Shown here piece after piece: positions 8,298-41,856 of a DNA stretch of 64,000 nucleotides (its first letter is position 1; every line of letters starts with the position of its first letter). Source of the stretch: an uncultured Bacteroidales bacterium. GTDB lineage: Bacteria; Bacteroidota; Bacteroidia; Bacteroidales; P3. The position numbers and the translations under genes were made by a program. The DNA lies in assembly GCA_947175635.1 (NCBI GenBank), contig CAMWNM010000005.1:7253-71252 (forward strand). Direction: 5' to 3'. The notes below the pieces were generated by a model that saw only the letters and a list, made by a program, of their open reading frames with translations, searched no databases and was not told where the DNA came from.

Positions 8298-8942
8298 TTA
8301 ACGCTTCAGGCTCAGGTAGTTTTCGTTGTTCACGGTTATTTGAATGATTCCGTAGTCTTTGTTATAGAAAAGCACAACAGGGACATCGTTTTTTATCGTT
8401 TGTGTCATTTCAACCACATCCTGGTAAATGTAACTGTTGATTTCTATGGTCTCATGGAAAGAAGACGATTCTACTATATATGCGCCTTTGTCGCTGATTT
8501 TGAACCCTACTGACATATACTCGTTCCAAGTGGAATACGCGATGTTCATTCCTATATTCAATAAACAGTAATCATCGTCCCACGTAAGCGAGGGATCGTT
8601 TGCCCAAGAAACATAAAAGGTCATCTGGAATTGGATTGAAAGATTGCTGGAATCGGCGCTTAATTCGATGGTCTCCGATTCGTACCGGATGTAGTCGGCC
8701 GGACAAAAGCTATCGTCCCATGCATCTTCTTGCGTCCACCATTTATTCCTTTTTGTTACCAGTAGGTCAACCGTATTCCCTTGTTGATCGGAGAAACTGT
8801 AGATGCCGTCCTGCCGGTAGGGCGGAAATAGCTTCTCCTGGGCTTTCGTGAATCGAAGACGCGCCACTTCTTTAGGCGAGCAGCACGAAGAGAATAATAC
8901 TGCTGAAACTATCAGAATAATCCAATGTGCCGTTCTCATCAT
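8298..8942 (-). CDS. Orphan lipoprotein, low G+C
   Basis: Signal peptide with lipobox MMRTAHWIILIVSAVLFSSC. The coding region is visibly AT-rich (22/60 G+C at 8401-8460). I recognise no domain. Confidence 0.6.
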   Translation of the reverse strand: MMRTAHWIILIVSAVLFSSCCSPKEVARLRFTKAQEKLFPPYRQDGIYSFSDQQGNTVDLLVTKRNKWWTQEDAWDDSFCPADYIRYESETIELSADSSNLSIQFQMTFYVSWANDPSLTWDDDYCLLNIGMNIAYSTWNEYMSVGFKISDKGAYIVESSSFHETIEINSYIYQDVVEMTQTIKNDVPVVLFYNKDYGIIQITVNNENYLSLKR

Positions 8943-9022
8943 GATGTTCTAAATTGTCATGGCCCCCTTCCGTACATAACAATCCTGGAGCCTAAGTAAA
9001 TCGTTTTCGGTGAATAGGCCGC

Positions 9023-10828
9023 CTACATCTTTTCCGGTGCGGAGATTCCCAGCAGATGCAAGCCTTTCTTGAGCGTTACGCCCGTTTGCTGCACCAAAGC
9101 CAGGCGGAAGGCCTTGAGTTGTTCGTTTTCTTCGCGCAGCACGTTGGTGTCCTGGTAGAAACCGTTGAAGTCTTTGGCCAGATCGTAGAGGTAATTGGCG
9201 ATAAGGGCGGGGCTGAACTGTTCGCCCGCCTGCTTCAAGACCGCAGGATAGGCCGCAAGGTTCTGAATCAGACTCTTTTCCTTGTCAGAAATATTCAGGC
9301 CCTCGGTTTGGTAGGCGATAAGTTCGTCGGGATTGCATCCGCTTTTGCGCAGCAGGGAACGGATACGGGCGTGCGTGTATTGCAGGAAAGGCCCGGTGTT
9401 GCCGTTAAAGTCGATGGATTCCTTGGGATTGAAAAGCATATTCTTTACCGGATCCACCTTCAGGATAAAGTATTTGAGCGCCCCCATGCCGAGTTCGAAA
9501 TACAATTTATCCATTTCCGCGCGGTCTTCATCCAATATAGACACACCCTTGGCGGCGCGGATTTCCTCGCCGGTCTCGCGGGCGGTCTCCGCCATCTTTT
9601 CCATCAGGTCGTCGGCATCCACCACGGTGCCTTCGCGCGATTTCATCTTGCCTTCGGGCAGTTCCACCATGCCGTAGGAAAGGTGCGTTATCTTCTCTCC
9701 CCAGGCGTAGCCCAGTTTGCGGAGCACCCGCTTCAGCACATCGAAATGGTAGTTCTGTTCATTGCCCACCACGTAGATGAGTTTTTGGGCGTCGAAATCC
9801 TTCTGGCGCAAACGGGCCGTTCCCAAATCCTGGGTCATATATACCGAAGTGCCGTCCTTGCGCAACAGCAATTTCTCATCCAGGCCTTCATCGCGCAGAT
9901 CCGCCCATACCGAGCCGTCTTCGTGTTTCACCAACACACCTTTCTCCAAACCTTCCTGCACCATGCTTTTACCCAGCAGGTAGGTGTCCGACTCATAGTA
10001 AATCTTGTCGAAGTCCACGCCCAATTTCGCATAGGTGGCATCGAAGCCCGCATATACCCAGGTATTCATCTTTCTCCACAGGGTCCGGATTTCTTCATCG
10101 CCGTCCTCCCATTTCTTGAGCATGGCCTGCGCCTCCTGCATCAGCGGCGTCTGGCGTTCGGCCTCGTCTTTTTCCATGCCGGGATGGGCGGTGAGCATCT
10201 TGTCGGTCTCTTCCTTGAGGTGATTGCTGAAAATTACATAGTATTTACCCACTAAGTGGTCGCCCTTCAAGCCCGAACTTTCGGGCGTTTCGCCATTGCC
10301 CCAGCGCAACCACGCCAGCATCGACTTGCAGATATGCACGCCGCGGTCGTTCACCAGATTCACTTTCTTTACCGTGTAGCCGTTGGCCTTGAGGATCTCG
10401 GCTACCGACCAACCGAGCAGGTTGTTGCGGATATGCCCCAAGTGCAAGGGCTTGTTGGTGTTGGGCGAGGAATATTCGATTACCACGGGCTTGGTATCTT
10501 TGGCCTCGGGTTCGCCGGCTTTGCGCAGCGTGTCTAAATATTTCACCCAGTAGGCATCGCTCACCGAAAGGTTCAGGAATCCTTTCACGGTGTTGAAAGC
10601 CGTTATGTCGGGGCAGTTCGCCTGCAGATATCCGCCTATCATCCGGCCCGTTTCTTCGGGGCTTTTCTTGGCCGCCTTTACAAAGGGAAACACCACCAAG
10701 GTGATGTCGCCTTCGAATTTCCGGTCGGTTTTCTGGAACTGTATGCCGGTCGCTTCCGTATCGGACCCGAATAATTCCTTTACGGCCTTTACGGCAAGCC
10801 TGCTCAAAATCTGCTCTATCGATTCCAT
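9023..10828 (-). CDS. argS: Arginine--tRNA ligase
   Basis: Class I HIGH-type motif SSPNTNKPLHLGHIRNNLLG, and the C-terminus ends ...APEKM as in ArgRS. I chose the start at MESIEQIL (10828) rather than the upstream ATG at 10867. Confidence 0.93.
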   Translation of the reverse strand: MESIEQILSRLAVKAVKELFGSDTEATGIQFQKTDRKFEGDITLVVFPFVKAAKKSPEETGRMIGGYLQANCPDITAFNTVKGFLNLSVSDAYWVKYLDTLRKAGEPEAKDTKPVVIEYSSPNTNKPLHLGHIRNNLLGWSVAEILKANGYTVKKVNLVNDRGVHICKSMLAWLRWGNGETPESSGLKGDHLVGKYYVIFSNHLKEETDKMLTAHPGMEKDEAERQTPLMQEAQAMLKKWEDGDEEIRTLWRKMNTWVYAGFDATYAKLGVDFDKIYYESDTYLLGKSMVQEGLEKGVLVKHEDGSVWADLRDEGLDEKLLLRKDGTSVYMTQDLGTARLRQKDFDAQKLIYVVGNEQNYHFDVLKRVLRKLGYAWGEKITHLSYGMVELPEGKMKSREGTVVDADDLMEKMAETARETGEEIRAAKGVSILDEDRAEMDKLYFELGMGALKYFILKVDPVKNMLFNPKESIDFNGNTGPFLQYTHARIRSLLRKSGCNPDELIAYQTEGLNISDKEKSLIQNLAAYPAVLKQAGEQFSPALIANYLYDLAKDFNGFYQDTNVLREENEQLKAFRLALVQQTGVTLKKGLHLLGISAPEKM

Positions 10829-19595: not shown

Positions 19596-20756
19596 ATGGA
19601 AAACAATAAAAGGAAAGCCCTGATTACGGGTGTGACGGGGCAGGACGGCGCTTATCTGAGCGAATTTCTCCTGAAAAAAGGCTATGAGGTGCATGGCATC
19701 AAACGCCGTTCTTCGCTTTTCAATACCGACCGTATCGACCACCTTTACCAGGATCCGCAGACAAAAGACCGTACTTTTGTGCTGCATTACGGCGATATGA
19801 CCGACAGCCTGAACCTTACCCGAATCGTGCAGGAGGTTCAACCCGATGAAATCTACAATCTGGCGGCCATGAGCCATGTGCAGGTAAGTTTCGACACGCC
19901 CGAATATACCGCCAACGCCGACGGCATCGGTACCTTGCGCCTGCTGGAGGCGGTCCGCCTGCTGGGCATGACGCAGAAAACGCGCATTTACCAGGCCTCC
20001 ACTTCCGAACTATTCGGCAAGGTGCAGGAGACCCCCCAGACCGAAAAGACACCTTTCTATCCGCGCAGTCCCTATGCCGCCGCCAAACTCTACGCCTATT
20101 GGATTACGGTGAACTACCGCGAGGCCTACGGGATTCACGCCAGCAACGGCATCCTGTTCAACCACGAGTCGCCGGTTCGGGGCGAGACTTTCGTTACCCG
20201 CAAGATAACCCGCGCGGTCTGCAAGATGGCCTTGGGACTGCAAGACCGGCTCTATCTCGGGAATATGGATTCCAAACGAGACTGGGGACACGCCAAAGAC
20301 TACGTGCGCGCCATGTGGATGATCCTGCAACAGGAAAAGCCCGACGATTACGTTATCGCCACCGGCACCACCACCTCCATACGCGAGTTCGTGGATATGG
20401 CTTTCCGTCAGATAGGCTGTACCTTGTCTTATAGGGGAACGGGTATGGACGAAACCGGTATTCTGGACGCCATCGACAAAGAAGTATTCGTGCAAAAAGT
20501 GGGAGAAGCGTACTACAGGGCTTTCAGCCAGCGTATCGGCAAGGTTCTGGTGGCGGTGGATGCCAAGTATTTCCGTCCCACCGAGGTGGATTTCCTCTTG
20601 GGGGATGCCCGCAAAGCACGGGAGGTATTGGGCTGGAAGCCCGAATACGATCTGGCGGCCTTGGTGCGCGAGATGATGGAAAGCGATATGCAGCTGATGC
20701 GGAAAGACGGATTCCTCAAGGAAAACGGCTATACGATTTTGAATTACTTTGAGTAG
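19596..20756 (+). CDS. gmd: GDP-mannose 4,6-dehydratase
   Basis: [40 protein letters not shown] plus the catalytic YxxxK (PYAAAKLYA). The real start is the ATG at 19596, not the ORF-track start at 19467. Confidence 0.93.
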
Positions 20757-20759
20757 AAA

Positions 20760-21878
20760 ATGAAAAAGACAGACTACAAACTCAAAAAATTGGAAATTAA
20801 AGGTTTCAAATCTATTGCATTTGACAAACCTTTGACTATACAATTTAATGATATCACTATTTTATTAGGCGCAAATGGCGCAGGGAAAAGCAATATCATT
20901 AGCTTTTTCAAAATGTTGGGCTATATGATGACAGCGAAGTTACAGGCATTTATAGCCCAAGCTGGCACAAGTCAAAGATTTCTCCACTATGGCATCAAGA
21001 AGACACCAACATTAAGTGCAGAAATTCGCTTTGAGAACGAAAAAGCAAATTATGGTATTTATCGTTTTCACCTTACCCATGCAGTTCCTGATAGACTTAT
21101 CGTAAATTCTGAAGAAGTTGAACACTATGACAAAGAGAAAAATGTTGACATTATCAATGGTGTTTTAGCATCCAAGTTCAATGAAGCAACATTAAGTCCA
21201 GAATCAAAGTCAGGTACAGAAAAACTTCTGTGGCGGTTGTTAAGTGGTTGTAAAGTATATCAGTTCAGCGATTCCTCTTTATCTTCCCCTATGCGCCAAG
21301 CATCAACTGTCGAATCCGCTCATTATCTACAATCCGAGGCGAATAACCTGTCATCTTTCCTATACTATTTGAGAAACAACTACAAAGACACATATAATAG
21401 AATTGTAGATTACACCAAAAGTGTTACTCCTCAATTTCAGGATTTCTATCTTGAACCTGAAGGTAATTACATCGCTTTGAAATGGATTGATAATTCCGCT
21501 AATGACTATGTGTTTTCCGCAGACCAACTATCCGATGGCTCCATTCGTTTTATCGCATTGGCCACCCTGCTGTTGCAACCCCAAGAAACCATTCCAAACG
21601 TTATCTTAATTGATGAACCAGAGTTGGGCTTGCATCCCTATGCTGTAGATCAATTGATTGAAATGATAAAAGATGCTTCCATGCGTGCCCAAATTATTAT
21701 TTCCACACAATCACCCGCATTGATGGATGGTTTCGATTTAGATGAAATTACAATTATTGAACATGATGGAAATTCCACCATTGCAAGAAAACTGGAATCA
21801 TCTGAATATGCGGAATGGTTAGATGAATATCTACCTAGTGAACTATGGAATAAAAATGTATTAGGAGGGCGTCCATAA
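20760..21878 (+). CDS. ABC/OLD-type AAA family ATPase (AAA_15/AAA_21-like)
   Basis: 372 aa with Walker A LLGANGAGKS (res 35-44), ABC-signature-like LSDGS (257-261), Walker B VILIDEPELGLHP (281-293), and STQSP (315-319) at the H-loop position. Confidence 0.8.
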   Translation: MKKTDYKLKKLEIKGFKSIAFDKPLTIQFNDITILLGANGAGKSNIISFFKMLGYMMTAKLQAFIAQAGTSQRFLHYGIKKTPTLSAEIRFENEKANYGIYRFHLTHAVPDRLIVNSEEVEHYDKEKNVDIINGVLASKFNEATLSPESKSGTEKLLWRLLSGCKVYQFSDSSLSSPMRQASTVESAHYLQSEANNLSSFLYYLRNNYKDTYNRIVDYTKSVTPQFQDFYLEPEGNYIALKWIDNSANDYVFSADQLSDGSIRFIALATLLLQPQETIPNVILIDEPELGLHPYAVDQLIEMIKDASMRAQIIISTQSPALMDGFDLDEITIIEHDGNSTIARKLESSEYAEWLDEYLPSELWNKNVLGGRP

Positions 21879-22579
21879 TGTACGAGAGCAAAGTGATCCT
21901 TAATGTTCTTTGTGAAGGAAAAACAGAAGAAGAATTTATAAAGCACGTTTTGAAGCCGTATTTGCAACCTTTCAATATCATTGCCAAAAGCATCTTATTG
22001 ACAACATCTAGAAAGAAAAATGCCCAAGGTGGCTTGAATAGTTATACTCAAGTACAAAAAGATTTGAGGTTATTGATAGCACAAACATCACATAAAGCTA
22101 ACGAACTGCATTATTTTACTACGATGTTCGATTTCTACAAGCTTCCTAATGACTTTCCTTTATATAAAAGAGCCTCATCCATACATGATGTATACAAGAA
22201 AATAGAAACATTGGAAACCGCCTTTCTTGATGACATCCAACATCCACACTTTATTCCATATATTCAACTACATGAATTTGAGGCATTTTTGTTCTGCGGT
22301 ATCGAACAATTGGCTCAAAAATACAATGAATGCGCCAAAGACATAAGGAAACTCGAAGATGCAGTAAGGGAGTGTAAAGGAAATCCTGAAATGGTAAATG
22401 GGGGAATTTCCACAGCACCCAGCAAACGTATCACTAATATCATAGATAAAACATATCATTACAACAAACCTCAAACCGGCCGAGAAATAACAAAACAAAT
22501 TGGCATCACTAAACTTAAAGAGAGATGCCTCCATTTTTCCGAATGGATAGAGAAACTAGAACATTTGGTGAGGAATTGA
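21878..22579 (+). CDS. DUF4276-like protein, partner of the ATPase
   Basis: 233 aa. ILNVLCEGKTEEEFIKHVLKPYL, FTTMFDFYKLP, IQLHEFEAFLF, APSKRITNII and CLHFSEWIEKL match my recollection of the conserved DUF4276 blocks. Its start overlaps the ATPase stop (TAATG at 21876-21880). Confidence 0.7.
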   Translation: MYESKVILNVLCEGKTEEEFIKHVLKPYLQPFNIIAKSILLTTSRKKNAQGGLNSYTQVQKDLRLLIAQTSHKANELHYFTTMFDFYKLPNDFPLYKRASSIHDVYKKIETLETAFLDDIQHPHFIPYIQLHEFEAFLFCGIEQLAQKYNECAKDIRKLEDAVRECKGNPEMVNGGISTAPSKRITNIIDKTYHYNKPQTGREITKQIGITKLKERCLHFSEWIEKLEHLVRN

Positions 22580-22616
22580 AAGTACTGTCTAATAGAAATC
22601 AAAAAACACCAAAATC

Positions 22617-23318
22617 ATGAAAAAACTTATTGCACTTATATTATTTGCCTTGTGCATTGCTTTCAGTTATGCACAAGAAGCCACAGAAGAAAGAAAAGTC
22701 ACAACCTTTCTTGGTATTCCTGTTGATGGAAGCAAGTCAGAAATGATACATAAATTGCAAAAAAAAGGGTATCAGTATGATGAAGATCTGGATATGTTGA
22801 CGGGAGAATATAATGGAGAGGATGTTATGATTGGTATTCAGACCAACAATAACAGAGTATGGCGACTTGGGATAATAGATGTTGCTCGCAGAAGTGAAGG
22901 ACAAATTAAAATACGGTTCAATAAACTCTGCGAACAATTCTCTAATAACAAACGATATAAAAACACCACAGATCAGACAATTTCGCAATTTGAGGATATC
23001 TCTTATGAAATGGCTGTTCACAATAAACAATATCAAGCTCTTTTCTTCCAAGATGCTCTACCTGAATTGGATTCAGTGGGATTGTATACTGAGCTTCGAA
23101 AGAAATATACTCCCGAACAATTGGATAATCCTACAGAAGAACAAGAACAAAAGATTTTTGATATCAAGATGGATTATATAAATGATGCATTTCAGAAGAT
23201 CTCGGGATTTATAAACAGATCTGTATGGTTTACCATTATTAATGAAAAATATGGAAAATATTACATCGTAATGTATTACGAAAACGGCTATAACGAAGCC
23301 AATGGTGAAGATTTGTAG
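22617..23318 (+). CDS. Orphan secreted protein (signal peptidase I type)
   Basis: 233 aa with signal peptide MKKLIALILFALCIAFSYA|QE. It is AT-rich like the two preceding genes. I recognise no domain. Confidence 0.6.
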   Translation: MKKLIALILFALCIAFSYAQEATEERKVTTFLGIPVDGSKSEMIHKLQKKGYQYDEDLDMLTGEYNGEDVMIGIQTNNNRVWRLGIIDVARRSEGQIKIRFNKLCEQFSNNKRYKNTTDQTISQFEDISYEMAVHNKQYQALFFQDALPELDSVGLYTELRKKYTPEQLDNPTEEQEQKIFDIKMDYINDAFQKISGFINRSVWFTIINEKYGKYYIVMYYENGYNEANGEDL

Positions 23319-23330
23319 ATAAGGGGAACA

Positions 23331-24443
23331 ATGAACAAGCAAGATAAAATCTACGTAGCCGGCCACAAAGGCCTTGTGGGCAGTGCCATTTGGCGCAACT
23401 TGCAATCCAAGGGCTATACCAATTTGGTGGGACGTTCCCATGCCGAGCTGGATTTGATGGATACAGCGGCCACCTGCCGTTTTTTTGACGAAGAGAAACC
23501 CGGTTACGTTATCGTGGCCTCCGCCAAGGTGGGCGGCATCCAGGCAAACAGCGTCTACCGGGGGCAGTTCATCTACGAGAACCTGATGATTGCCTGCAAC
23601 ACCATCCATCAGGCCTATACCCACGGAGTCAAGAAACTGCTGTTCTTAGGCAGTTCGTGCATCTATCCGCGTCTGGCGCCCCAACCTATGCCCGAAGACT
23701 GCCTTCTGACATCGCCCCTCGAATACACCAACGAACCCTACGCGCTCTCCAAGATTGCGGGCCTGAAGATGTGCGAAAGCTACAACCTCCAGTACGGTAC
23801 CGATTTCATCTCGGTGATGCCCACCAACCTCTACGGGCCTTACGACAACTTCAATCTGGAGACCTCCCACGTTCTGCCCGCTATCCTGCGCAAGATGTTC
23901 TTGGGCAGATGCCTCGAAACGGGCAACTGGCAATCGCTCCGCGCGGATTTGAATGTGCGCCCGGTGGAAGGCGTGAACGGCACGGCATCCGAAGAAAAGA
24001 TTCTCGACATTTTGGCTAAATACGGCATCCGGACCACGGATGTGCAAGAAAACAAACCTTGCGGCGTGAAAGTGGAAATATGGGGAAGCGGCAAGCCGAT
24101 GCGGGAATTCCTTTGGAGCGAAGACATGGCGGATGCCTGCGTGTATCTGCTCGAAAACGTTTCCTTTGCCGACCTGAGCCAAGGCATGGGCAAGGAAATC
24201 CGCAACACCCACATCAATATCGGCACGGGCAAGGAAGTTACTATTGCGCAGACGGCACAACTGATCAAACAGGAAGTGGGTTTTGAAGGCGAACTATTCT
24301 TCAATGCCGGGAAACCCGACGGAACGCCGCGCAAACTGTTGGATGTTTCCAAACTCCACGCACTCGGTTGGCGTCACAAGGTGGAATTGGAAGAAGGCAT
24401 CGCACGCCTGGCGCAGTGGTACTTGAACAGCCTCGGCAAGTAA
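23331..24443 (+). CDS. fcl: GDP-L-fucose synthase (GDP-4-keto-6-deoxymannose epimerase/reductase)
   Basis: KIYVAGHKGLVGSAI Rossmann motif, YxxxK in PYALSKIAG, and SVMPTNLYGPYDNF, typical of Fcl/WcaG. Confidence 0.9.
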   Translation: MNKQDKIYVAGHKGLVGSAIWRNLQSKGYTNLVGRSHAELDLMDTAATCRFFDEEKPGYVIVASAKVGGIQANSVYRGQFIYENLMIACNTIHQAYTHGVKKLLFLGSSCIYPRLAPQPMPEDCLLTSPLEYTNEPYALSKIAGLKMCESYNLQYGTDFISVMPTNLYGPYDNFNLETSHVLPAILRKMFLGRCLETGNWQSLRADLNVRPVEGVNGTASEEKILDILAKYGIRTTDVQENKPCGVKVEIWGSGKPMREFLWSEDMADACVYLLENVSFADLSQGMGKEIRNTHINIGTGKEVTIAQTAQLIKQEVGFEGELFFNAGKPDGTPRKLLDVSKLHALGWRHKVELEEGIARLAQWYLNSLGK

Positions 24444-26259: not shown

Positions 26260-26772
26260 TTATTCGTCCTTTAAGCCTTTAATGCAATCCATGCCCGTTT
26301 GTACGGTTTCGCTCACGATAGGCCAAAAGCGGTAGGTGGCGCTTTCCACATAACGGAAAGACAGCGAAGCGTCCCTTACCGAGGGCTTGAGAATCTCTTC
26401 CCTGGGATCGATTTTGTTCCAGAAATAAATAAGGATGCTCAGCACGGCCAGCACCTTGCAGAAACTCAACAGCAAGCCGCCTATACGGTTGAACAGTCCC
26501 AGCGAGGTTCTGTTGGCCCAGTTTCCGAAAATCTTACCCAAAAAATACACGCCCACAGATACACCTATAAACATAATGACGAAGCAGATGGTTTGGGCGT
26601 ACCGGCCGTTTATCGAGAACCATTCCCCCACCAGATAGGAGAATTTGAACGACATATAGAATCCCGCCACCAAGGCCAGAAAAGACATCAGCTCCATCAC
26701 AAGGCCGTTTCTTGCGCCTTTGAAGCCGCACCACAAAAGGGGAACAAGGATGATAAGGTCTAAGAAATTCAT
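26260..26772 (-). CDS. cvpA: CvpA family membrane protein
   Basis: 170 aa with 4 TM segments. MNFLDLIILVPLLWCGFKGARNGLV is a typical CvpA N-terminus. An ATGA overlap links it to the upstream ABC ATPase gene. Confidence 0.75.
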   Translation of the reverse strand: MNFLDLIILVPLLWCGFKGARNGLVMELMSFLALVAGFYMSFKFSYLVGEWFSINGRYAQTICFVIMFIGVSVGVYFLGKIFGNWANRTSLGLFNRIGGLLLSFCKVLAVLSILIYFWNKIDPREEILKPSVRDASLSFRYVESATYRFWPIVSETVQTGMDCIKGLKDE

Positions 26773-27545
26773 GCGGTAAGATGTTTGTCCCGATGGTTAT
26801 GCAGAAGCCGTTTGGTAAGTTCGGAGGCTTCCATGAAATGAATGATTTCCTTGTTGTCGCTGTCCAGGATCGAACTGCCGTTTCCCTGCCACCAGAGTTT
26901 TCCCTCGTAGATGAAGTTCACCGTATCGCCGATTTTCAACACCGAATTCATATCGTGGGTATTGATAATGGTGGTGATGCCGTATTCATCGGTGATTTCC
27001 GCAATCAGGTTATCGATAAGTTCGGAAGTACGCGGGTCAAGCCCCGAGTTGGGTTCATCGCAGAAGAGGTATTTCGGCGCCATGGCGATGGCTCTCGCGA
27101 TGGCCACCCGTTTGCGCATTCCCCCGCTGAGTTCGGCCGGAGAAAGTTTCTCGGCTCCTTTCAAATCCACGCGTTGCAGACAGTCCTTGGCGCGCTTTAT
27201 CTTTTCTCCGCGCGACTTTTTGGTGAACATATCCATCGGAAACATCACGTTTTCCAGCACCGAAAGAGAGTCGAACAAGGCGCCGCCCTGGAATACCATG
27301 CCTATTTCGCGGCGGATGGAAGTAAGCAGTTCCTGATTATTGCCTTTTACAAAGTTGCGTCCGTCGAAGAGGATACTGCCGCTTTCGGGAGCAAGCAGTC
27401 CCACCATGGTTTTCATCAGCACGGTTTTTCCCGAACCGCTTTGTCCGATAATCAGGTTGCATTTGCCCGGCATCATTTTCAGATTGATGTCGAACAGCAC
27501 CTGGCGGTCGCCGAAAAATTTGTTAAGATGTTGAATCTCTATCAT
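26769..27545 (-). CDS. ABC transporter ATP-binding protein (MlaF-like)
   Basis: Walker A GQSGSGKT, signature LSGGMRKR and Walker B YLFCDEP. It is downstream of an MlaE-like permease. Confidence 0.85.
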   Translation of the reverse strand: MIEIQHLNKFFGDRQVLFDINLKMMPGKCNLIIGQSGSGKTVLMKTMVGLLAPESGSILFDGRNFVKGNNQELLTSIRREIGMVFQGGALFDSLSVLENVMFPMDMFTKKSRGEKIKRAKDCLQRVDLKGAEKLSPAELSGGMRKRVAIARAIAMAPKYLFCDEPNSGLDPRTSELIDNLIAEITDEYGITTIINTHDMNSVLKIGDTVNFIYEGKLWWQGNGSSILDSDNKEIIHFMEASELTKRLLHNHRDKHLTA

Positions 27546-28660: not shown

Positions 28661-29467
28661 GTTCTGCGCCAAGACGAAATCCTCCCCGGTTTTGACGATC
28701 CGGTATTCGTTGCCCTCCATGCGGATATACATGCCGGGTTCGGTTTGCGCCACCTTTCGGTGTCCGGCAGACGTGTAGCCGGTTGCTTCGGGGGGGGCTT
28801 CCTGCGGTCGGTTTTTCTTTTCTTCCGCAATCTGTCTTTTCATTTCTTGCCGCTGCCGGTCTTCCCGGAGTCCGGCCGACAGTTTTTCAGCCTGTTCTCC
28901 CATATAGGGAGCGGGAATCTCGATGCCTTTCTTGAGCAGTTTCAGATAGGTTCTGGCAAATTCCTTTCGGTTTTTGCCGTAGCGCAGGCAGGCCTCCTCC
29001 ATTTCGGCTTCGAAATAGCGGCTGGTTTTCACAAAATAGCGTTGAATAACCTCCAGAATGTCGGCGGGAAAGATCTCCGGCGAGAAAAAAGGCTGGAAAA
29101 GCCGTTTGAAATTGTTTTTCCATTCCTTTCCATGCGGATATACCGTATCGCCGTATTGACGACGGGTAACGAGGTGTGCCCACTCATGCACGAATACAAA
29201 CAGCAGGGCGTAGGGGTTGAGGTCGATTTGCAGGGAAATGGTATGCAGCGTATCAAAACCCTTGGGGTGTGAAAGAAAAGGAGCGGTCTCGGTTTTGGGC
29301 GGCATATAGTACCCCAAGGTACGGCTTTTTCGGTCGGAAAAGGCTACGCGCACCCCGTCTTGGGCCAACCAGGAGAGGATATGGGGCAGCGCTGCCTTGA
29401 TGATGAAAGGCTGGAGCGCGCGGGCAAGATTCCGCTCTATTTTTATACCGTTTGCAGGCTCACTCAT
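28595..29467 (-). CDS. SprT-like zinc metalloprotease domain protein
   Basis: 290 aa with the HExxH motif in LLFVFVHEWAHLVTRRQYG...HGKEW. Confidence 0.65.
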   Translation of the reverse strand: MSEPANGIKIERNLARALQPFIIKAALPHILSWLAQDGVRVAFSDRKSRTLGYYMPPKTETAPFLSHPKGFDTLHTISLQIDLNPYALLFVFVHEWAHLVTRRQYGDTVYPHGKEWKNNFKRLFQPFFSPEIFPADILEVIQRYFVKTSRYFEAEMEEACLRYGKNRKEFARTYLKLLKKGIEIPAPYMGEQAEKLSAGLREDRQRQEMKRQIAEEKKNRPQEAPPEATGYTSAGHRKVAQTEPGMYIRMEGNEYRIVKTGEDFVLAQNLSTGKLARIHGLVEAEMLERG

Positions 29468-29560
29468 GCCGCAAAATTAGCGAAAACAGATGGCCGGATA
29501 AAGGGGAAAATGCTACTTTTGCAGTCTGTGTTCCGCAAAACAAAAAGCAAGATAGGGAAT

Positions 29561-31369
29561 ATGCGCCATTTTTTTTCATTATTGGCTCACTATAAGGGGT
29601 ATATCGTACTCAATATCCTTTCCAACCTATTGTATGTACTTACATCTTTCTTTTCCCTTACCCTTATCGCCCCCTTTGTTTCGGTCATGTTCGGAATGGT
29701 GGACAGGGTGGAGGCACTGCCTGCATTTGAGTTTGATGCCGACACATTGTTGCGGTACGCTTATTTCTATGTGGCCCGGTTTGAAGATGCCTATGGGGTG
29801 ATGCCGGCTTTGGTGATGCTGGCGGTGGGGTTTGTGTTGATGTCTGTACTCTCCAATGCTTTCCGCTACGGGGCCCTGTATTGTTTGGGAACCCTCAGAA
29901 GCGGTGTCGTATGCGATCTTCGCAGTTATTTCTATTCGTGTATGATGCGCTTGCCCTTGGCTTATTTTTCCGAGCAGAAGAAAGGGGATTTGCTTTCGCG
30001 TGTGAACAACGATATGGCAGAGGTGGAGGCGGCTGTGGTGAAGTCCTTGCAGAGTGCCATCATGGAACCTCTTTATGTGTTGGTGTTCGTTGCCGGCTTG
30101 TTTGGTCTCAACGCGCAGCTCTCTCTGGTGGTGTTGCTGGCTTTTCCGCCCATTCTTTACATCATGGGGAGAATCGGCGTTTTTCTCAAAAGGCGTTCGG
30201 AAACGGTGCAGCAGATGCTGGGGCAGTTGGTGGCCACGATAGAGGAGGCCATAAACGGTTTGCGTGTCATCAAATCTTTCAATCTTATCGATTGGACGGG
30301 CGATGGTTTCCGCCAGTACAACAAGAAATATGTAAAGGTACTCAACGGGGTGCACAGGAGAAGGGATCTTTCGGGGCCGCTTACCGAAATCCTGCTGGTG
30401 ATCGTTACCATGGGCGTGTTGGGCTTCGGCGGCGTGAGGGTATTGAACGGCGGTATGCAGCCCGATCTTTTCGTGCTGTACATACTCCTGCTTATCCGCA
30501 TCATCTCTCCGGCCAAGCATACGGTGGATGCCTACTACAATATTCAGAAGGGACGCGCCGCCTTAAAGCGCATCTATGCCGTGATCAACGAACCTCCGGG
30601 CGAGACGGATGCCGCCGATGCGCGTTCCAAAACCTCGTTCGATGCTGAATTGGAATACAGGGATGTGTCTTTTCAGTACGTTTCGGGTGAAGCGACGGTG
30701 TTGGAACATGTGAACCTGAAGATTCAGAAAGGCCGGATCTACGCATTTGTAGGGGCCTCCGGCGCGGGTAAAACCACCATGGTGGATTTGCTGTGCCGCC
30801 ATTACGATGTTTCGTCAGGTGCCATCCTGATGGACGGCCAAGATATTGCCGGCATCAGACGGAACGACCTGCGGGAACTGATAGGTACCGTAAGTCAGCA
30901 TCCTTTCGTATGGCACGATACGGTGGCCAACAACATCCGTTTCGGAAAGGAAGAGGCCACAATGGAGGAAGTGATGGAAGCGGCCAGAAAAGCCAACGCC
31001 CACGACTTCATCATGGCCATGCCGGAAGGTTACGATACCGTATTGGGCGATAATGGCATGACCGTTTCGGGCGGACAGCGTCAGCGGATCGTGATCGCCC
31101 GCGCCATTCTCAAGAACGCCCCCATTCTGGTGCTGGACGAGGCAACTTCGGCACTCGATACCGAGTCGGAAGTGCTGGTGCAGCAGGCCCTGACTCAACT
31201 GATGGAGGGGAGGACTTCGATCGTGATAGCCCATCGGCTCAGTACCATCCGGCATGCCGACTGTATCGTGGTGTTCGACAGGGGCCGGATTGTGGAACAA
31301 GGCACGCACGAGGAATTGATGGCCTTGGACGGGCATTATGCCAAATATGTGGGATTGCAAACTTTGTAA
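29561..31369 (+). CDS. ABC exporter, fused permease/ATPase (MsbA-like)
   Basis: Six-TM domain followed by an NBD with Walker A GASGAGKTT, signature VSGGQRQR and Walker B ILVLDEATSALD. The start is the ATG at 29561 (MRHFFSLL), not 29360. Confidence 0.85.
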   Translation: MRHFFSLLAHYKGYIVLNILSNLLYVLTSFFSLTLIAPFVSVMFGMVDRVEALPAFEFDADTLLRYAYFYVARFEDAYGVMPALVMLAVGFVLMSVLSNAFRYGALYCLGTLRSGVVCDLRSYFYSCMMRLPLAYFSEQKKGDLLSRVNNDMAEVEAAVVKSLQSAIMEPLYVLVFVAGLFGLNAQLSLVVLLAFPPILYIMGRIGVFLKRRSETVQQMLGQLVATIEEAINGLRVIKSFNLIDWTGDGFRQYNKKYVKVLNGVHRRRDLSGPLTEILLVIVTMGVLGFGGVRVLNGGMQPDLFVLYILLLIRIISPAKHTVDAYYNIQKGRAALKRIYAVINEPPGETDAADARSKTSFDAELEYRDVSFQYVSGEATVLEHVNLKIQKGRIYAFVGASGAGKTTMVDLLCRHYDVSSGAILMDGQDIAGIRRNDLRELIGTVSQHPFVWHDTVANNIRFGKEEATMEEVMEAARKANAHDFIMAMPEGYDTVLGDNGMTVSGGQRQRIVIARAILKNAPILVLDEATSALDTESEVLVQQALTQLMEGRTSIVIAHRLSTIRHADCIVVFDRGRIVEQGTHEELMALDGHYAKYVGLQTL

Positions 31370-39912: not shown

Positions 39913-41856
39913 CTAAATCTTGGTGGACTGGGAGGGCGAATGCCATTTGTATCCGAGTGCGCCGTCCGGGGCAATCCTCTCTTCCGAGAGCAGATATTGC
40001 CAGAGTTGTTGGAGGCGGATTTCGCTTTCTTGCGGAAAAACATCCGAGAGCAATTGCAGGTTCAATGTACTTTGCGCGGAAACAGACTGTAGTTCATCTG
40101 CCATCAGGCGAAGTTGTTTTTCGGAGATGGGGAGGGCTTTTCGCGCCAGACATATGTCGCAATGTCCGCAGTCTTGCCGGTTGTCTTCCCCCAGATATTG
40201 CAGCAGGAAGCGGTTGCGACACAGGCTTTTTTCGGTGGCATAGCTTGCCATCGCATCGGCTTTGCGCCGGGCGTTTTCTTTACGTTCGGCATAGTTTTCG
40301 GGGCGCAGGAAAGAGGGTCCTGTCTTCCGTCTTGGCATGAGCAACGTGATTGTTCCGCCCTCGGAAGGGGGAATGTAGTCGAGCAGGGATACGGCTGAGA
40401 GCTTTTGCAGGGCTTCCCTGACGAGATTCCCGCTTTGTTTAAGCCGTCTTGCCAGTTCGGGTTCGTCTATCGGTACGTAGTCCGAGAAAAGTTTTCCTCC
40501 GTAGGTGCGCAACAAGGTGGTAAGCAGATTCTGAAAAACAGGATGCGCTACCTGATAGCGATACACCGTATCGTAATCTGCCTTGAAATGCACCTTTCCC
40601 GTTTCTCGCGCCGAGTCGGAGAGGCGCAGGTAGCCGTCTTTTTCCAAAAAGAACAGTGCCGAGAAGGTTTCGGCTACAGGCAGGCGGCAGGTCTGGCAGA
40701 ATTGAGGGAGGTTAAAGGCATTCTCCACGCCTTCGCCGCTTCCTGCGGGGATATTGAGATAGTTGCCGAGGGCTTCGTATACACTTTTGATAAAGGGCAG
40801 GGCAGGATAGGCGCGGTTCAGGTTCTGTTCGGCTTCCATGCGGTCGGAGGGATGATATACCAGAACGGCGAAAGCTCTTTTTTCATCGCGTCCGGCCCGT
40901 CCGGCCTCCTGAAAATAGGCCTCAATGGTATCAGGCAGGTCCAGATGCACCACATAGCGAACATCGGGTTTGTCGATGCCCATGCCGAATGCGTTGGTGG
41001 CCACCATTACCTGTATCTTGCCTTCGATCCATGCGTCCTGCCGTCGGGAACGGGTGGCGGCATCCATGCCTCCGTGGTAAAAAGAAGCCGAAATGCCCCT
41101 TTTCTGCAAGGCCTCGGCTATCTGAACGGTCTTTCTTCGTTTGCGTACATAGACGATACCGCTTCCCCCCACTTTATTCACGATGCGCTCCACACGTCCC
41201 AGCTTGTCTTCATCATACACCACATAGTAGGTGAGGTTTTCCCGCGTAAAGCTCTTTTGAAATACCTTGCGGGGCAGAATGCGGAGTTTATCCTGAATGT
41301 CCTCCACCACTTCAGGGGTAGCCGTGGCGGTGAGGGCCAGTACCGGTACGCGGGGCAGACGGCTCCGCAACAGGGCTATCTGCAGATAGGGAGGACGGAA
41401 GTCGTATCCCCATTGAGAGATGCAATGCGCCTCATCTACGGCCAGCAGGCAAACCTGCATCTGTTGCAGATGCGCCAGGAATGTCTCGTTTTGGCAACGT
41501 TCGGGCGAAATGTAGAGAAACTTGATCCGGTTGTGAATGGCCGCGTTGAAAATCAGTTCGGTTTCATGCGTTGACAGACCGCTGTAAACAGCTTCGGCGG
41601 CAATCCCTCTTCGCTTGAGGTTTTCAACCTGGTCTTTCATCAATGCGATAAGGGGCGATATGACGATACATATGCCCCTCATCGCTAAAGCCGGCACTTG
41701 AAAGCAGATGGACTTTCCCCCGCCGGTGGGAAGCAATGCCAATGCATCCTTCCCTTGCAATACATATTCGATAATATCCTGTTGCAAAGCCCGGAATCGG
41801 GCGTAACCCCAATATTGCCGCAGGATATCGTGGATGTGGAAATTATCTGTTGCCAA
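39913..41856 (-). CDS. recQ: RecQ family ATP-dependent DNA helicase
   Basis: RFRALQQDII...LLPTGGGKS (motif I), LLAVDEAHCISQWGYDFRP (DEAH box), and a Zn-finger-like CGHCDIC near the C-terminus. Confidence 0.9.
   Translation of the reverse strand: MATDNFHIHDILRQYWGYARFRALQQDIIEYVLQGKDALALLPTGGGKSICFQVPALAMRGICIVISPLIALMKDQVENLKRRGIAAEAVYSGLSTHETELIFNAAIHNRIKFLYISPERCQNETFLAHLQQMQVCLLAVDEAHCISQWGYDFRPPYLQIALLRSRLPRVPVLALTATATPEVVEDIQDKLRILPRKVFQKSFTRENLTYYVVYDEDKLGRVERIVNKVGGSGIVYVRKRRKTVQIAEALQKRGISASFYHGGMDAATRSRRQDAWIEGKIQVMVATNAFGMGIDKPDVRYVVHLDLPDTIEAYFQEAGRAGRDEKRAFAVLVYHPSDRMEAEQNLNRAYPALPFIKSVYEALGNYLNIPAGSGEGVENAFNLPQFCQTCRLPVAETFSALFFLEKDGYLRLSDSARETGKVHFKADYDTVYRYQVAHPVFQNLLTTLLRTYGGKLFSDYVPIDEPELARRLKQSGNLVREALQKLSAVSLLDYIPPSEGGTITLLMPRRKTGPSFLRPENYAERKENARRKADAMASYATEKSLCRNRFLLQYLGEDNRQDCGHCDICLARKALPISEKQLRLMADELQSVSAQSTLNLQLLSDVFPQESEIRLQQLWQYLLSEERIAPDGALGYKWHSPSQSTKI

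Follow-up and report, generated by a model that had tools for sequence, protein, structure and literature searches.

An HEC-01-type ABC ATPase and DUF4276 gene pair, a putative ATPase-gated Toprim nuclease, in the gmd-fcl operon of an uncultured Bacteroidales bacterium

HEC-01 (Hma-embedded candidate 01) was found inside Hma systems by Payne et al. and was described as an ABC ATPase paired with a TOPRIM-like protein that has a conserved metal-binding site (bioRxiv 10.1101/2024.01.29.577857). The system is widespread, and the two tests of it in E. coli disagree. Here, a pair of this kind is analysed in a 64,000-nucleotide (nt) stretch of DNA from an uncultured Bacteroidales bacterium (GCA_947175635.1, contig CAMWNM010000005.1, positions 7,253-71,252 of the forward strand). 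This whole stretch is called the window, and all positions given below are those of the window. Two adjacent genes on its + strand encode HEC-01A, an ABC ATPase of 372 amino acids (aa) that resembles the head of SMC proteins but has no coiled coil (20760..21878), and HEC-01B, a Toprim-like putative nuclease of 233 aa that consists of a DUF4276 domain (21878..22579). Both assignments come from PADLOC, Pfam, AlphaFold2 (AF2) and Foldseek.

The same combination of domains is known from other defence-related systems. DUF4276 and RloB have been jointly placed in the Toprim superfamily (PMC12065111), and the paper on PARIS added MADS3-4, which consists of an ATPase and a DUF4276 protein, to the ABC-ATPase/TOPRIM systems (PMC11464382). 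The authors of the MADS study report that defence needs both mad3 and mad4 (the ATPase and the DUF4276 homologue), and that a deletion of mad5, the methylase gene, was obtainable only in combination with one of mad2 or mad3 (10.1101/2023.03.30.534895). The Toprim domains of AriB, the PARIS effector, and of P2 OLD act as tRNases (PMC11464382; 10.64898/2026.07.10.737580).

The window pair almost certainly belongs to HEC-01. In PADLOC, the HEC-01A model PDLC04175 matches the ATPase at 1.4e-122 (protein residues 6-372 on profile positions 4-362 of 363) and the HEC-01B model PDLC04188 matches the partner at 2.9e-73 (residues 8-231 on positions 15-227 of 230), whereas the AriA, Old, GajA, AbiLi and retron ATPase models are far poorer than HEC-01A on the ATPase. 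It is because these full-length matches far exceed those of the other ATPase models that the pair is regarded as an instance of the catalogued candidate; the two genes are also adjacent and on the same strand, as in HEC-01, with a 1-nt stop/start overlap in the window. Pfam finds AAA_21 (1.8e-27), SMC_N (6.6e-16) and AAA_15 (1.5e-15) in the ATPase, and DUF4276 (PF14103) over the entire profile in the partner (positions 1-192 of 192; 2.5e-49), where the score of 168.6 bits is well above the cut-off, 30.2. A preliminary description of this DNA, made from its letters and open reading frames (ORFs), had reported the two ORFs at the same positions and strand, had recognised the partner as DUF4276 and had proposed profile searches with AAA_21, AAA_15 and DUF4276; the ORFs are present as claimed, and these families are all significant in the searches, with PADLOC supplying the name HEC-01. 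The same description called the pair uncharacterised, which does not hold: it is already in PADLOC as an ABC ATPase with a TOPRIM protein, HEC-01 has been tested in E. coli, and DUF4276 had already been placed in the Toprim superfamily. The pair is a further member of a catalogued candidate system and not a new system, and in annotation it should be labelled HEC-01. Relatives of the DUF4276 protein are encoded at no fewer than 580 loci in species-representative genomes. Clustered at 50% identity, the family falls into 4,083 groups (E <=1e-3), and every one of the best 150 is a single protein of ~170-250 aa.

The AF2 model of the ATPase (predicted local distance difference test score, pLDDT, 79.5; predicted template modelling score, pTM, 0.82) is matched best in Foldseek by the SMC head 4i99 (E 3e-11, template modelling score, TM, 0.58-0.66), followed by retron PtuA, Rad50, GajA and OLD. 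The nucleotide-binding motifs named in the preliminary description are all present, and an alignment of 50 sequences, with identity down to 36%, shows how strictly they are kept. In the Walker A motif GANGAGKS (residues 37-44; 20868..20891, +), G37, N39, G40, G42, K43 and S44 are invariant, as is the following N45. The signature-like LSDGS (257-261; 21528..21542, +) has invariant D259 and G260 and a nearly invariant S258, preceded by an invariant Q256. The Walker B motif VILIDEPE (281-288), with D285 and E286, continues into the D-loop region (VILIDEPELGLHP; 21600..21638, +), and D285-E286-P-E-L-G-L-H-P293 is invariant throughout. VYQF (21255..21266, +), whose Q168 is at least 90% conserved, is the probable Q-loop, judging from its place after a beta-strand. 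ABC ATPases normally carry a histidine at the H-loop; the corresponding position here, in STQSP (315-319; 21702..21716, +), is occupied by Gln317 in place of His, and this glutamine is found in 50/50 homologues. The substitution suggests slow hydrolysis and a protein that works as a switch more than as a motor. The C-terminal tail of the ATPase (W353...ELWxKN..GGRP) is invariant across phyla and disordered in the monomer model, and is a candidate docking element.

The DUF4276 partner is modelled with higher scores (pLDDT 92.2, pTM 0.88). Its predicted order of elements is b1 (5-12)-a1-b2-a2-b3 (76-85)-helices-b4 (125-130), followed by a helical C-terminal half. The Toprim fold is a three-layer alpha/beta structure with a four-stranded parallel sheet of order 2-1-3-4, with which the predicted succession of elements along the chain is compatible. 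In Foldseek, the only PDB matches with E <0.05 are to the C-terminal (Toprim) region of Xanthomonas OLD (6njx/6njv, probability 0.98), while in the viral library BFVD the best credible match is an RloB-like phage protein (probability 0.94, TM 0.40-0.43). Weak matches to the Pfam family OLD-like_TOPRIM also occur in 4/57 members of the DUF4276 family.

Residue conservation in the partner was assessed over 144 cluster representatives, whose identity to the window protein is 32-50%. The b1-a1 loop CEGKTEEEF (residues 12-20; 21911..21937, +) comes directly after the strand 5-12 and contains E13 (100%) and E17 (99%); a conserved glutamate in this loop is a mark of Toprim proteins, and E13 is the candidate for it. 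At the end of b3, TTMFDFY (22118..22138, +) contains D85 (100%) and Y87, which is Tyr in 97% and Phe in the rest. After b4 follows a further acidic block, HEFEAFLF (132-139; 22271..22294, +), with H132 at 95% and E133 and E135 both at 99%; this H-E-x-E could supply the remaining metal ligands. In Toprim enzymes, metal is bound where b1, b3 and b4 end on their C-terminal side, and it is there, in the predicted sheet, that E13, E17, D85, E133 and E135 are found. The acidic blocks that the preliminary description had called conserved are thus conserved nearly without exception. Its two further motifs are also present, in the C-terminal helical domain (22415..22546, +), which carries APSKRI (180-185) and CLHFSEW (217-223). 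Here P181, S182, F220 and W223 reach 100%, K197 and H219 99%, C217 98% and R184 95%, and E171 is also among the residues conserved at 95-100%. The invariant H-loop glutamine of the ATPase and the D-x-Y in place of the Toprim DxD are departures that are modestly new here.

The two genes are held together closely. In the best 80 of the at least 580 loci, which come from many phyla, an ATPase homologue lies directly upstream of DUF4276 on the same strand in 80/80. The two proteins are also inherited together: correlating their pairwise identities gives a Mantel r of 0.83, a value reached in 0/999 permutations. The co-conservation that the preliminary description had proposed to look for is therefore evident. 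A third conserved gene was not found, the commonest neighbour family occurring in only 9/80 loci. At the window junction (21864..21880, +; TTAGGAGGGCGTCCATAATG), GGAGG lies inside the codons of the C-terminal GGRP and is followed by TAATG, in which, as first described, the stop TAA (21876-21878) and the start ATG (21878-21880) share one base. Among 74 junctions of other genomes there are 51 with ATGA and ~7 with GTGA or TTGA (4-nt overlap) and 10 with T(A/G)ATG (1-nt overlap), so that stop and start overlap in ~68/74. In most of the junctions listed, GGAGG or GGGGG stands upstream, where the ATPase tail has its Gly-Gly codons. The GGAGG lies 9-13 nt before the partner start in most listed junctions from many phyla, including Bacteroidota, a phylum generally thought to use Shine-Dalgarno sequences little. 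These bases appear to be under both coding and translational-coupling constraint. Modestly new here is that stop and start overlap almost everywhere, mostly behind a Shine-Dalgarno-like element within the coding sequence.

By analogy with described systems, the pair would probably serve as an ATPase-gated Toprim nuclease in defence against phages or mobile elements, a reading in which we place somewhat better than even confidence. HEC-01A would then most likely be an ATP-dependent sensor or gate and HEC-01B most likely a divalent-metal nuclease of the Toprim superfamily. As in PARIS, P2 OLD, Septu and Menshen, an oligomer of the ATPase may keep the nuclease inactive until a phage or foreign-DNA cue alters the ATP-bound state of the ATPase. 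The H-loop glutamine would make hydrolysis slow and the ATPase switch-like, and the nuclease, once released or activated, would cut tRNA or DNA and so halt the infection, which would probably cost the cell something too. The defence reading draws support from membership in HEC-01 and from the fold matches, from the obligate coupled pairing, the invariant acidic site, the intact nucleotide-binding motifs and a conflict-type evolution (see below), and from the reports on MADS, AriB, P2 OLD and one protective HEC-01 representative. The preliminary description had likened the pair to OLD, Gabija and PARIS, and that analogy stands in so far as a stand-alone ABC-type ATPase is indeed coupled to a small protein with a Toprim-like acidic site.

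Several observations weigh against a defence nuclease. The match to the OLD Toprim region is globally weak (TM 0.35-0.39, E ~2e-3), a search with the DUF4276 profile against PDB sequences returned noise alone (E >=0.12) and no solved structure by sequence, and the DxD that follows b3 in Toprim proteins is absent from the 144 representatives, which have D85-x-Y87 instead. The nuclease-like fold anticipated in the preliminary description is therefore borne out in part: the OLD Toprim region is the best match and an acidic site is present, but the TM is low and the DxD is missing. The HEC-01 representative of Payne et al. was unprotective in E. coli against the phages tried (10.1101/2024.01.29.577857); protection of E. 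coli B by a cold-seep representative was later reported, against one or more of the phages T4, T5 and T7 (bioRxiv 10.1101/2024.09.26.614923), but this positive report is a single screen with three phages. The genomic context is no more telling. At positions ±1 and ±2 in ~70 genomes, scanned with PADLOC and Pfam, housekeeping genes predominate. Type III restriction-modification (RM), BREX, Hma-like or PDC-S02 genes make up a few of the neighbours, and at E <=1e-10 even the most frequent defence families account for no more than 2-3 of the 112 or 102 scanned. Guilt by association is therefore weak and, with defence families such a small minority, is not used as evidence; the enrichment in defence islands envisaged in the preliminary description was not found in these genomes. 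The pair is also nearly absent from virus and plasmid records, with 4 contigs in IMG/VR and, in protein-level searches, 13/72,556 plasmids and 0/50,697 phage genomes; a DNA-level search of plasmids found none. Carriage by phages or satellites, as for PARIS, was rejected on these counts. The words 'mobile defence gene pair' used in the preliminary description accordingly have to be replaced by a long-resident insert in gmd-fcl, outside any defence-island context found.

Mad3/Mad4 of Pseudomonas aeruginosa represent the same domain pair (PMC12065111, PMC11464382), and the PADLOC mad3 profile is covered in full by its match to the window ATPase (1.4e-29). However, with NCBIfam antiphage_MADS3 the ATPase scores 95.2 bits against a cut-off of 420 and is not an equivalog, which also counts against the defence reading, and the PADLOC matches of the window DUF4276 protein at E <=0.01 are to HEC-01B models only, with no Mad4 model among them. 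Moreover, mad1, mad2 and mad5-8 were not detected among the called ORFs of the window, where the proteins that match the mad2 and mad8 models are a RecQ-like helicase or ABC transporters. The mad3 match itself is not specific evidence, because ordinary ABC transporters of the window match the same model: plain transporter ATPases at 29360-31366 (+) and 26769-27542 (-) match PDLC04135 at 5.5e-33 and 1.6e-23, running through profile positions ~211-363. A specific MADS relationship drawn from that match was rejected on the strength of the transporter match at 5.5e-33.

The window pair agrees with HEC-01 in the full length of both model matches, in gene order and in the description as ABC ATPase and TOPRIM-like protein. 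It differs in context: HEC-01 first came to light inside Hma or other multi-gene defence systems, a setting that the PADLOC model does not demand, whereas the window pair is flanked by gmd and fcl in a sugar-nucleotide operon, outside any Hma or other methylation system. Methyltransferase, RM, MADS and Hma genes were all searched for among the called ORFs of the window and none was detected.

With PARIS the pair shares the split into two genes, an AAA_15/21-type ABC ATPase with an effector of the Toprim superfamily, and possibly the logic of sequestering and then releasing a nuclease. The AriA models of PADLOC are matched weakly (7e-27, 3e-17), far below HEC-01A, and the PDB entry for AriA, 8ux9, is matched at 1e-5 over residues 276-329 of the window ATPase only. 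The effector, however, is DUF4276 and not the DUF4435 of AriB: Pfam gives no DUF4435 match to the partner even at E <=10, PADLOC gives no AriB match, and AriB structures are absent from the top 50 Foldseek matches of the DUF4276 model. The window ATPase, at 372 aa, is closest to SMC heads, while the AriA chains in the PDB have 464 aa; and PARIS is often encoded in viral genomes (PMC11464382), unlike the HEC-01 family. OLD and GajA have an ATPase of the same class, and the OLD Toprim region provides the best PDB fold match of the partner. Nevertheless, ATPase and Toprim are fused in these proteins and are two polypeptides in the window, the window pair has D-x-Y for DxD and Gln for the H-loop His, and there is no UvrD-like GajB partner of the kind found in Gabija. 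Finally, RloB and NsnC of Menshen are likened to the partner by the joint placement of DUF4276 and RloB in Toprim (PMC12065111) and by the RloB-like phage protein in BFVD. However, there is no sequence-level match between the window DUF4276 protein and RloB, and the associated proteins are others (NsnA and NsnB in Menshen, a Type I RM system for RloB).

In the window, the pair splits two genes that serve here as context only: gmd, for a GDP-mannose 4,6-dehydratase of 386 aa (19596..20756, +; Pfam GDP_Man_Dehyd 3.3e-151), and fcl, for a GDP-L-fucose synthase-type epimerase/reductase of 370 aa (23331..24443, +; Pfam Epimerase and GDP_Man_Dehyd). Only 3 nt separate the gmd stop from the ATPase ATG (junction GAGTAGAAAATG). 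Downstream of DUF4276 come 37 nt, then orf3 (22617..23318, +), which encodes a 233-aa protein of unknown function with a signal peptide (MKKLIALILFALCIAFSYAQ) and only a weak DUF6705 match (1.4e-3), and then 12 nt before fcl. The pair is packed into the operon without a gap large enough to hold a promoter for it. Together with orf3 it forms an island of low GC content (20757..23330), with ~35-37% GC against ~50-57% in the flanks, and 0.34-0.40 against 0.49-0.59 at the widest, the sole such island in the window; GC at third codon positions (GC3) is 0.30-0.34 in its three genes (0.30 in orf3), while all other called ORFs have 0.37-0.71, nearly all of them at least 0.49. Around the island, flanking direct or inverted repeats, terminators and promoters were not found beyond chance; the window contains no tRNA gene, and there is no Rfam match at 18-26 kb.

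The same insertion is found, at exactly the same gmd-fcl site, in five related lineages: that of the window (L001), L005, L006, L173 and L172, the last a 'Bacteroides sp.' metagenome-assembled genome (GCA_023662825.1). Across them the pair has 35-43% GC against 49-58% in the host. Since five related lineages share the site, the acquisition is not recent, and the pair was probably inserted before they split. The AT-rich, acquired context noted in the preliminary description is thus correct as far as base composition goes, this being the sole low-GC island, but the acquisition is an old one. In metagenomes, fcl follows gmd within 150 bp in 41/65 informative Gmd loci and the HEC-01 pair is present in 0/65, a scan that covered relatives at most 73% identical and that contained no empty site from the same genus. 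In L172 (7680-7710), where orf3 is missing, the DUF4276 stop overlaps the fcl start (ATGA), and the cassette is therefore translationally chained into gmd-fcl on both sides. In L006, an extra gene of 315 aa without a Pfam match (8830-9777, -) stands between DUF4276 and the orf3 homologue, so that the gap between gmd and fcl gathers different cargo in different lineages. Besides L006, orf3 is found in L005 and L173; absent from L172 and from the 80/80 HEC-01 loci of other genomes, it was rejected as a third component.

Comparison of the five lineages shows that the pair has evolved differently from its surroundings. Pairwise identities are 88-98% for Gmd, 85-98% for Fcl and 74-97% for the ATPase, against 58-78% for the N-terminal half and 47-84% for the C-terminal half of DUF4276. 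How alike the pairs are does not follow host relatedness: between L005 and L006, identity is 98% in Gmd and 88% in the ATPase, but 52% in the C-terminal half of DUF4276. Between the window and L005, divergence at synonymous sites (dS) changes abruptly along the locus, from 0.59 in gmd to 0.16 in ATPase residues 1-278, 0.34 in residues 279-372, 1.86 in DUF4276 residues 1-139 and 0.39 in residues 140-233. Because a dS of 1.86 in DUF4276 1-139 stands beside 0.16 in the ATPase, allele replacement by recombination is the explanation adopted; diversifying selection by point mutation was rejected for the divergent N-terminal half, where synonymous sites are saturated. The pair is a mosaic produced by recombination among alleles, which has affected above all the Toprim core of the putative nuclease, and dN/dS (the ratio of non-synonymous to synonymous divergence) well below 1 shows purifying selection on the pair. 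Long-term residence embedded in the gmd-fcl operon, with swapping of alleles, is modestly new here, and the natural swaps in a gut-type Bacteroidales copy single out the Toprim core as the variable part. A more far-reaching proposal, speculative and unlikely at present, is that the cassette has become a domesticated immune locus in a fixed position, where swaps of the Toprim core renew specificity and the active site is mechanistically distinct. If so, the cassette would be transcribed and translated with the GDP-fucose operon and defence would be co-expressed with the synthesis of surface-glycan precursors. The D-x-Y/H-E-x-E site and the H-loop glutamine would then define a distinct ATPase-gated nuclease, possibly one that uses a non-canonical metal site to cut tRNA, unlike a plain OLD-like DNase.

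These observations also bear on other explanations. A selfish addiction module of the toxin-antitoxin type, in which a DUF4276 toxin is checked by the ATPase and the host gains no net defence benefit, would persist in gmd-fcl because loss or unequal expression kills the cell. The tight translational coupling would then fix the stoichiometry of the two proteins, and the retention of a compositionally foreign pair at one site in five lineages would be expected. Existing labels point the same way, as the Pfam entry for AAA_21 reads 'putative AbiEii toxin, Type IV TA system' and the PDB depositors call AriA 'AriA antitoxin', and one tested HEC-01 had no defence phenotype (10.1101/2024.01.29.577857). 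However, segmental allele replacement and very divergent Toprim cores better fit an external enemy, one HEC-01 representative lowered phage plating (10.1101/2024.09.26.614923) and defence by MADS needs mad3 and mad4 (10.1101/2023.03.30.534895). This explanation is unlikely on balance, although addiction and abortive defence can coexist. Less probable still is that the pair is an accessory to a methylation-based system and has no activity outside one, as Mad3/Mad4 within MADS/Hma or some Type III RM and BREX contexts would suggest, so that an orphan copy at gmd-fcl is inactive or depends on a methyltransferase elsewhere in the genome. HEC-01 was discovered embedded in Hma systems (10.1101/2024.01.29.577857), the genetics of mad5, deletable only together with mad2 or mad3, tie such a pair to methylation (10.1101/2023.03.30.534895), and a few embedded loci exist (L009, for example), with REase_III, MTase_III, PglX, BrxL and HmaA among the neighbours. 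Most of the loci examined elsewhere and all five gmd-fcl loci nevertheless have no such neighbour, nor was a methyltransferase or RM-type gene detected among the called ORFs of the 64 kb window. The catalytic-type residues are moreover invariant in orphan copies and, since purifying selection is evident, the pair is not decaying.

A housekeeping role is harder to reconcile with the data than either of these. The pair could mirror RecF and RecR in DNA repair or maintenance, since RecF is an ABC ATPase resembling SMC heads and RecR belongs to the Toprim proteins: SMC and Rad50 heads are the best structural matches of the ATPase, the partner fold is Toprim-like, the neighbours are housekeeping genes and there is a weak NCBIfam match to RecF. 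That match (TIGR00611), however, has 26.5 bits against a cut-off of 172 and covers only the N-terminal 44 residues, whereas the match to HEC-01 in PADLOC is full-length. A patchy distribution across phyla, foreign base composition and allele swapping also speak against such a role, as does the full acidic metal-site set of the partner, which suggests catalysis, and we regard this possibility as very unlikely. The place in the operon invites the idea of a function in GDP-fucose or surface-glycan synthesis, and the order gmd-[pair]-fcl is indeed kept in five lineages with gaps of 2-3 nt and, in L172, the ATGA overlap with fcl, while some other loci adjoin glycosyltransferase or sugar-epimerase genes. 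Nonetheless, gmd or fcl is near 0/80 HEC-01 loci in other genomes, the informative metagenome Gmd loci lack the pair altogether (0/65) and Pfam finds no sugar-metabolism domain in either protein, which leaves this idea extremely improbable. An ATPase-gated Toprim nuclease acting in defence therefore remains the preferred reading.

Three further observations concern individual genes and loci. In the window, a RecQ-like helicase of 646 aa (39913-41853, -) matches the PADLOC models DpdF (5.7e-142) and PsyrT (1.4e-110) through the N-terminal helicase part of these models; no other Dpd genes are seen in the window, and the protein is probably a housekeeping RecQ and not a defence system. At positions 35-9637 of L009, the ATPase-DUF4276 pair is preceded by a Type III-like DNA methylase and followed by a large ORF and then an SNF2-family helicase; this locus exemplifies embedding of the Hma/Type III-like sort, the setting from which HEC-01 first became known. 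Lastly, two bins from one study, one archaeal (L025, Candidatus Methanomethylophilaceae archaeon) and one from the Firmicutes (L026, Firmicutes bacterium CAG:460), have identical pair coordinates, identities and junctions, which suggests either a binning artefact or a very recent transfer.

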